This document shows positions 4,857 through 5,607 of a stretch of 42,066 nucleotides of DNA, one piece after another (the stretch's first letter is position 1; every line of letters starts with the position of its first letter). The stretch is taken from UHGV virus genome UHGV-0115695. One strand, written 5' to 3'. The notes under the pieces were generated by a model that was not told where the DNA came from, ran no database searches, and was given only the letters and a program-made list of their open reading frames with translations. A program made the position numbers and the translations under genes. The stretch is from a virus.

Positions 4857-5357
4857 TTATTCGCTCCCGTTATCGCAAGGTTCCTTCCGGTGGAAGTAAT
4901 TCCAACCGTTCCACTTCGCCAACTGGTTACCACTACCAACAGGCATACGGTTTGGATAACCGGACTTACATTTAGCGGCTTTTGCTCTGTCCATTGCAGA
5001 CAGTTTGACGAGTCGCTCTTTCCCGTATCTGGCAGTGGTTATAAGTTTTGCAGAGGCTTCCAGCGCATAATCCGGAGCAATTCGGCAGGCAAGGTTGAAA
5101 ATGACAGAATTGATAGCGTTATTTGATAAACCGTGCTCATCGCCCGGATCCGGAGCGACATCTGCATCAGCAAAAATGTAGCCAACGTTGATGCCAGGTG
5201 ACACATCACCGCCAAGCCATTCAGCCATCATCATTTCAAGGTCATTGACGCCGTCTTCCATGGACTGCGGTTCGACATCGGTTAACGTGGCATTTGATGC
5301 CACACCGAGCTTACGTAATGCCGCAAGGACTAAATCACCCTTCGTTGTCAGGTTCAT
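4857..5357 (-). CDS. 4: Head completion protein, P22 gp4 homologue (start at internal Met of the 203-aa track ORF)
   Basis: From [33 protein letters not shown]... the protein matches recalled P22 gp4 and gives 166 aa; the N-terminal (SQ)n extension in the track comes from reading the hexanucleotide repeat and is rejected. Confidence 0.85.
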
Positions 5358-5607
5358 CTGCTGCCGCCTTAGGTTTTCGACCAGGCTTTTTACGCTGTTT
5401 TTCTTCTGGCTCTGGCTCTGGCTCTGGCTCTGGCTCTGGCTCTGGCTCTGGCTCTGGCTCTGCAACATCCTTCAGAAGATCATCAGGATGTGCAAACCAG
5501 CCAGCATCCAGATATTCCTGAAGCTCTTCGGCTTTCACGATTTCAAAGTCGTATCCAACGCCTTTCCATTTCTTCATGTCGCCATGACGAAAGATCATGT
5601 GTGTCAT
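5335..5607 (-). CDS. Small hypothetical protein with (EP)9-10 dipeptide repeat and basic C-terminal tail
   Basis: ATG at 5607 preceded by GGAGA 6 nt upstream and by the coat-gene terminator; 90 aa; ends 23 nt inside gp4 start; contains the in-frame hexanucleotide repeat. Confidence 0.55.
5404..5463. repeat. Hexanucleotide microsatellite, about 10 copies of CTGGCT (GAGCCA on the coding strand)
   Basis: Perfect period-6 tandem array read directly from the sequence; translated as EPEPEP in the small ORF. Confidence 0.95.

Follow-up and report, generated by a model that had tools for sequence, protein, structure and literature searches.

The 42,066-nucleotide (nt) virus genome UHGV-0115695 (the window, by which we mean this whole stretch of DNA) has the late operon of a P22-like prophage in its left 12 kb, encoded on the minus strand. 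Between the genes for the major coat protein and the head-tail adaptor gp4 lies a small open reading frame (ORF) of 90 amino acids (aa), through which a perfect hexanucleotide microsatellite is read in frame as a Glu-Pro array, (EP)n. Judged by its conservation, the ORF at 5335-5607 is a genuine gene. We consider it probable that P22-like (Lederbergvirus-type) prophages carry it as an accessory late gene and that slippage within it generates a spacer-length polymorphism of 1-24 EP units and no on/off switch. The features at the locus, from the coat gene to gp4, are as follows.

5652-6947, minus strand: P22-type major coat protein gene (gp5), the upstream neighbor (PF11651 P22_CoatProtein, E = 5e-164)
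5616-5646, minus strand: terminator-like hairpin with a U run, immediately past the stop codon of the coat gene (terminator scan)
5614-5617, minus strand: Shine-Dalgarno sequence GGAG, 6 nt before the small-ORF ATG at 5607 (read from the sequence)
5335-5607, minus strand: small ORF, 90 aa plus stop, a phrog_1175 member (a hypothetical protein in E. coli genomes in RefSeq)
5461-5607, minus strand: N-terminal domain, residues 1-49 (AlphaFold2, conservation, and counts of synonymous and nonsynonymous changes)
5405-5462, minus strand: perfect hexanucleotide microsatellite, with GAG-CCA pairs at 5407-5460 that give (EP)9
5368-5391, minus strand: AT-hook-like basic motif KKPGRKPK, residues 73-80 (conservation in relatives)
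5335-5357, minus strand: 23-nt overlap of the small-ORF end with the gp4 start (gp4 start placed by alignment to P22 gp4)
4857-5357, minus strand: gp4, head-tail adaptor, 166 aa, the downstream neighbor (PF11650, E = 5e-58; alignment to 8tvu)

Tandem Repeats Finder places the microsatellite at 5405-5462 with a period of 6, 9.7 copies, 100% matches and no indels (score 116), and a regular-expression check returns an uninterrupted 58-nt tract, 9.67 copies of TCTGGC. Its minus strand holds nine GAG-CCA (Glu-Pro) codon pairs with a partial unit at either end, and the small protein is accordingly laid out as 49 residues, then (EP)9, then 23 residues. A preliminary description of this stretch had counted ten CTGGCT units at 5404-5463. 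In the CTGGCT register there are nine full units (5406-5459) followed by CTG, its count was a third of a unit too high, the ends it gave are 1-2 nt off, and its ten repeat units become nine EP units in the protein. The rest of its reading was borne out: the hexanucleotide is translated in frame as EPEPEP ahead of a lysine-rich tail, inside a 90-aa ORF between the coat terminator and gp4, and that ORF overlaps the gp4 start by 23 nt. The choice of frame is supported by a lineage of related loci (L013, L019 and L021) whose entire array consists of GAACCA. This form keeps Glu-Pro and is synonymous in that frame only; in the other open frame it replaces Ser with Asn (N-Q). A chance origin of the tract is excluded because a perfect 58-nt hexamer run is unexpected in 42 kb. 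Only one other run of at least five copies is present in the window, a GGGCT repeat at 42014-42061.

Several observations show that the ORF behaves as a protein-coding gene. It matches phrog_1175, a phage protein family of unknown function, at E = 1e-33 (residues 1-88 against positions 1-72 of the 72-position profile), and the distant relatives P0127 and P0133 match the same family. Homologues at E <= 0.001 number 372, all of them named hypothetical, and come from Escherichia, Salmonella and Shigella. Of 84 related loci, 82 have an unbroken ORF even though their arrays differ in length. Read in the ORF frame, the N-terminal-domain variants of close relatives divide into 16 synonymous and 11 nonsynonymous changes, against an expected synonymous fraction of 0.19; the ratios in the two other frames are 3:24 and 5:22. 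In relatives at 37-65% identity the proportion of nonsynonymous differences (pN) is 0.21-0.39 and that of synonymous differences (pS) is 0.61-0.93, and the order coat, ORF, gp4 is kept. Residues W14, G16, Y19, D20, G36, W37, H40, P41, D42 and P79 are invariant among relatives. The tail of close relatives has 7 variable sites, which are 2 synonymous to 5 nonsynonymous in every frame, and this region is hence blind to frame. The suggestion that the small ORF in the virion module is a real, conserved gene is therefore supported by its phrog_1175 membership, by purifying selection and by the coat-ORF-gp4 synteny.

The gene is already catalogued in PHROGs and RefSeq as hypothetical, and an in-frame coding variable-number tandem repeat is a well-known kind of feature. 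Our searches of the literature on this gene and its repeat, on the WDGH domain discussed below, on the carrier phages, and on hexanucleotide repeats of P22-like phages or prophages found no description, and a search on the eight carrier phages found no proteomic data. A probe for the locus was covered over at least 80% of its length in 171 of 5,426 complete E. coli genomes (~3%). The closest complete genomes to the window prophage are ~97% identical over 6 kb.

The repeat varies widely in copy number among relatives. The eight phage records that carry the gene give matches of 559-595 nt, compared with 601 nt in the window. The best 80 of 231 IMG/VR loci range from 240 to 306 nt in 6-nt steps and carry 4-15 units, and their arrays are very pure (GAGCCA in 563 of 627 units). 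Complete E. coli genomes extend the range in both directions, with verified examples of (EP)1 in a 74-aa protein, (EP)15, and (EP)24 in a 120-aa protein. Judged by match length, 46 evenly sampled complete genomes fall into 17 size classes of ~1-24 units, mostly 1-9. The preliminary description had proposed that slippage of a 6-nt unit would keep the frame and alter the length of the linker, and the 1-24 units carried by relatives agree with this. It had also proposed comparing copy number among relatives, and the copy numbers are not identical: of 14 pairs of loci whose 1,800 nt of flank show 0 differences, 8 have unequal arrays, 1-4 units apart. Array length thus turns over much more quickly than point substitutions accrue.

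All of these length changes are multiples of 6, and the locus is therefore a length polymorphism and not a phase switch. A phase-variable on/off locus was rejected on the same grounds, as the unit is 6 nt, every length variant is in frame and 82 of the 84 loci are intact. A promoter-spacing switch was likewise rejected, since the tract does not lie between promoter elements.

We propose that slipped-strand mispairing in the pure (GAGCCA)n array would add or remove whole Glu-Pro units. The ORF would stay open, and gp4, which begins 48 nt past the tract, would be untouched. The predicted product is a small late protein in which an acidic spacer of 2-48 residues separates the N-terminal domain from the basic motif, and changes in the array would alter both the reach and the net charge between the two. 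It is probable that most of this length variation is tolerated rather than selected. The wide range that is apparently tolerated suggests that the length of the spacer is not critical.

The same repeat unit has a precedent in E. coli. In multiple-locus variable-number tandem-repeat analysis (MLVA) of E. coli O157, the locus TR2 has the repeat unit TGGCTC and a diversity index of 92.2%, the highest of seven loci (PMC2246123). As in the window, the TR2 unit (GAGCCA on the coding strand) lies inside an ORF and is read as (EP)n, reaching (EP)23 in one locus of our set (L091). TR2 differs in that its 427-aa ORF is unrelated to the small protein, and the locus is used for typing only. Identity of the window tract with TR2 was considered and rejected: the window has no site for either TR2 primer when up to 3 mismatches are allowed, and the ORF around TR2 is a different one. 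In L091 the ORF that carries TR2 is at 8462-9745 on the minus strand, with (EP)23, again of GAGCCA units, near its C-terminus.

AlphaFold2 predicts a folded N-terminal domain (beta hairpin, helix, G-W, helix) with a confidence score (pLDDT) of ~90 at residues 20-40, and predicts the remainder to be disordered. The domain has a net charge of -4 and the tail of +1, and each EP unit adds -1, which gives ~-3 minus the EP count, or -12 in the window. Within the tail, P79 of the motif KKPGRKPK is invariant, K74 and K80 are nearly so, and an acidic end lies behind the motif. The variants in relatives are KKPGPKPK, KRGRKPK, KKRGRKPK, KKRGRPTK and KRRGRPPK, with codons that differ across genera. Distant members of the family have short Glu/Asp-Pro-rich linkers at the position of the repeat, written in other codons, and short diverged forms at 37-74% identity occur in other P22-like phages.

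Likenesses to known proteins suggest what these parts may do. The small protein has a short G-R-x-P core amid Lys, Arg and Pro in a disordered region, which resembles the AT-hook of the HMGA type (R-G-R-P); the canonical RGRP core is present in P0133 (KRRGRPPK) and P0166 (KKRGRPTK), and RGRKP in P0159 and P0182. It differs from the canonical motif in that the window core is G-R-K-P and the protein is acidic, and the likeness is one of sequence. The Glu-Pro acidic run followed by a Lys/Pro-rich basic run recalls the (EP)n-(KP)n spacer of TonB. In TonB the EP and KP runs serve as a spacer, taking the shape of an extended polyproline-II-like rod. By analogy, the EP run of the small protein may act as a stiff spacer, extended and negatively charged. 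The NCBIfam models for TonB do match residues 47-83 at E = 0.004, with 17 bits against a cut-off of 315, and we rejected membership in the TonB family, as the EP/K-P stretch alone aligns and the small protein has neither a membrane anchor nor the TonB C-terminal domain. Moreover, no pure hypervariable microsatellite encodes the TonB array; the resemblance is compositional.

An exhaustive phmmer search of the N-terminal domain against 1.84 billion representatives returned 24 hits, and outside the family these were only short repeat modules of homing-endonuclease-like proteins. Residues 21-38 resemble this module (..IVkxEELQxYLDxGW..), over 16-25 residues; proteins with GIY-YIG, HNH or NUMOD3 hits contain it 4-7 times. 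The module sits in DNA-binding regions of homing endonucleases. The N-terminal domain may thus be a DNA-contact module, and the basic motif is the likelier of the two parts to contact DNA. The small protein differs from these proteins in having a single copy and no nuclease domain. We rejected the possibility that it is itself a homing endonuclease, given that the 16-25-aa module is the sole match. Other searches with the small protein gave little: nothing in Pfam scored above cut-off, with no WDGH and no nuclease domain; Pfam and NCBIfam together gave compositional matches only (procyclin PARP, TonB, DnaX and others), far under cut-off; PADLOC gave no match; and a sequence search of the PDB matched only EP-rich stretches of unrelated proteins.

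Some E. coli prophages have a longer gene in the slot between coat and gp4, of 195 aa in the cluster representative P0145 and 203 aa in the locus L084 (1336-1947, minus strand). The L084 allele has a homologous N-terminal domain, a WDGH domain (PF25311, E = 1.5e-39), (EP)n and an identical tail. The WDGH domain is thus inserted between the N-terminal domain and the spacer, and the (EP)n of the WDGH allele also varies by 6-nt steps. These WDGH proteins (phrog_3769, PF25311) share with the small protein the slot, the 23-nt overlap with gp4, the N-terminal domain, the EP linker and the AT-hook-like tail. Among P22-like prophages the WDGH architecture is widespread, with Pantoea, Cronobacter, Serratia, Xenorhabdus, Erwinia, Hafnia and Klebsiella as hosts, and in one Pantoea genome we confirmed the position of the gene between coat and gp4. 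In the Pantoea, Cronobacter, Serratia, Erwinia, Hafnia and Klebsiella proteins an EP-rich linker followed by [KR][KR]xG[RP][KP]PK is kept, and in P0191 and P0197 the WDGH domain is joined to an N-terminal domain of the small-protein type. By sequence comparison, the window gene is the WDGH-less form of a modular family whose constant parts are the N-terminal domain, the EP-rich linker and the basic motif.

The WDGH domain also occurs away from this slot. In L096 (4001-4798, P0241) it lies between Tad2-like (PF11195) and Sequestin (PF21825) domains in a gene of another phage, next to its lysis genes. The reasoning from domain fusions in PMC12265669 makes WDGH a candidate counter-defence domain. 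In some genomes RefSeq records the WDGH allele as a split pseudogene; in L084 it is one intact ORF.

Some of our results weigh against the interpretation of a maintained late gene with a slippage-driven, DNA-associated product. The small-protein gene is present in just 8 of 50,697 phage records, and many well-studied P22-like phages are without it; it is therefore dispensable for virion assembly. The tail sits in the translation-initiation region of gp4, and its conservation in close relatives could in part reflect constraint at the level of the RNA. The protein is strongly acidic overall (net -12), which is unusual for a DNA binder, and the window motif reads P-G-R-K-P as opposed to the canonical R-G-R-P. 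Lastly, five complete-genome records that share one prophage, with E. coli W accounting for two, agree in match length; at 6 units, slippage is therefore not rapid over laboratory time.

The explanation that competes best concerns the variation itself. It is possible, though we think it doubtful, that length variation is adaptive and that the array is a contingency locus which diversifies the length or charge of the spacer, for example to escape a host factor that recognizes the protein or to tune a late protein tethered to DNA. The purity of the arrays, their variation among otherwise identical prophages, the wide range of 1-24 units and the retention of an EP-rich linker at this position across genera could all be taken in this sense, as could the fusion elsewhere of the sister allele's WDGH domain to anti-defence sponge domains (PMC12265669). 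Slippage alone, however, yields both purity and variability, and the persistence of every length from 1 to 24 looks like tolerance. Nor do the lack of a PADLOC match and the constant length in the five records of one prophage favor a locus under diversifying pressure.

It is tempting to extend this to the whole family, and we do so as a speculation to which we attach little probability. The slot between coat and gp4 might hold a family of late DNA-tethered proteins, perhaps packaged or co-injected with the genome, in which the N-terminal domain would be a handle for assembly or targeting, the tail a genome binder, the WDGH domain a cargo and the hypermutable (EP)n rod a selected, fast-evolving ruler or tuner of charge. 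The short form found in the window would then be a cargo-less adaptor or decoy. The cargo in this scheme, equally speculative, would be the domain that is fused elsewhere to Tad2-like and Sequestin anti-Thoeris sponge domains.

A third possibility, which we hold to be quite improbable, is that the ORF is incidental and its product functionless, with gp4 expression tuned instead by the length of a non-coding tract, by way of the distance to the terminator, mRNA structure or translational coupling. The geometry of the locus invites this idea. The tract does lie between a terminator-like hairpin and the gp4 start; the hairpin (5646-5625, minus strand) has a 9-bp stem and a UUCG loop, GGGAGC-UUCG-GCUCCC, with a U run behind it, and the 65 nt that enclose it (5596-5660) have a folding energy of -19.7 kcal/mol (z = -3.1). 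Distant relatives have a hairpin of other sequence at the same site downstream of coat. The end of the ORF overlaps gp4, and ribosomes translating it would cross the gp4 initiation region; the gene is, in addition, absent from most P22-like phages. The preliminary description had made the repeat part of the upstream region of gp4, which is correct by position only, as the tract stops 48 nt 5' of the gp4 ATG. Set against this geometry are the strong synonymous excess in the ORF frame only, pN below pS in distant relatives, residues that are invariant across 37-70% identity, a basic motif conserved with different codons, and the many genera in which the N-terminal domain, the EP linker and the basic motif recur with a WDGH domain inserted among them. 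Given this conservation at the protein level, a spacer acting purely as RNA is unlikely, although an additional regulatory side effect on gp4 is possible.

The sister allele raises the question of whether the small gene is simply what is left of it. We give very little weight to the idea that it is a decaying deletion remnant of the longer WDGH allele which has lost its function. The WDGH allele does have the same slot, tail and repeat, and P0191 and P0197 pair an N-terminal domain of the small type with WDGH. Nevertheless, purifying selection acts on the short form, its ORF is undamaged in 82 of the 84 loci, and it exists as the diverged forms, at 37-74% identity, of other P22-like phages; diverged and selected short forms argue that the short form is old and maintained, and our tests contradict a decaying remnant.

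The remaining alternative is that gp4 starts at an ATG at 5468 and has a (Ser-Gln)n N-terminal extension, the repeat being read in the second open frame of the minus strand. It has next to nothing in its favor beyond a frame that is open from that ATG into gp4 in the window and most close relatives and the annotation of gp4 in this form in IME10 (606 nt) and Dewey (594 nt), where the small ORF is omitted or truncated, and it is contradicted by our tests: residue 1 of solved P22 gp4 (8tvu and others) aligns to residue 38 of the long ORF 4857-5468, which is Met 5357; a stop codon 1-2 codons 5' of the gp4 ATG in distant relatives leaves no room for an extension there; the WDGH allele lacks the upstream ATG and has only a TTG left; AAGG abuts the ATG at 5468, a poor spacing for a ribosome-binding site; the GAG-to-GAA arrays would turn Ser into Asn; and RefSeq calls gp4 as 501 nt and annotates the small ORF separately. 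The region homologous to gp4 begins at Met 5357, and the repeat lies outside it. The 23-nt overlap of the two genes is also annotated in APC_JM3.2 and in RefSeq genomes.

The records that read the repeat as gp4 are those of IME10 (NC_019501, L003 in our set), at 1158-1763, and Dewey (PQ850600, L002), at 1158-1751. In the APC_JM3.2 record, gp4 is labelled 'recombinase RmuC' and the repeat is marked as a repeat_region. The extended gp4 of IME10 and Dewey and the RmuC label of APC_JM3.2 are probable annotation errors.

A spacer-length polymorphism in a conserved small gene has several practical consequences. The phenomenon is itself ordinary, as in-frame coding microsatellite linkers are well known and this very unit is already hypervariable elsewhere in E. 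coli. Nevertheless, the locus is as variable as established MLVA markers and may be useful as a prophage-borne typing marker, and the repeat is a likely source of errors in assembly and annotation, as the IME10 and Dewey cases illustrate. Our comparisons also define an architecture for the uncharacterized accessory family formed by phrog_1175 and phrog_3769 in a fixed slot of the P22 head operon. With the WDGH domain fused elsewhere to anti-defence sponge domains, this slot would be a reasonable place to look for new late proteins that are DNA-associated or act in counter-defence.

The remaining genes of the late operon, with one gene on the opposite strand, flank the locus as follows.

11-1426, minus strand: ejection protein of the P22 injectosome translocase family (PF16928), left late operon
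2590-3438, minus strand: Sf6-type tail needle, left late operon
3438-4856, minus strand: gp10, left late operon
7015-7536, plus strand: HNH endonuclease (phrog_99, E = 7e-51)
7537-8448, minus strand: scaffold, followed by portal and terminase

The HNH gene lies between scaffold and coat on the opposite strand. It is not listed in many related E. coli prophages that match ~90% of the 6-kb region, which is consistent with the insertion of a free-standing homing endonuclease.

Other repeats and islands in the window are separate from this locus. Tandem repeats of 12 nt (CATCATGTGCGG-like, 2.7 and 4 copies) lie at 21515-21626 within a replication protein O-like gene (21106-22053, PF04492) and look like lambda-type origin iterons. 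On the plus strand, the ORF at 25386-26360 has a very high content of Glu, Ala, Lys and Arg, a coiled-coil-like stretch and no Pfam hit, and Tandem Repeats Finder detects in it a degenerate 6-nt periodicity at 25952-26035. A P4-like satellite island, adjacent to the P22-like prophage and bordering dsdC, comes after an integrase gene (31318-32541); together they occupy 31318-41495. The island's genes include those for a primase (35610-38297; zinc-ribbon, Toprim and DUF927 domains) and a P2-family capsid protein, along with an Icd-like gene. The second microsatellite of the window, a perfect GGGCT x 9.6 repeat at 42014-42061 whose unit is not a multiple of 3, is intergenic, with a small helix-turn-helix regulator of the P4-like island on one side and host dsdC on the other. 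The 1,067 nt at 41000-42066, which include this repeat, are 100% identical in the best-matching genomes, several of which are O25b:H4-ST131.

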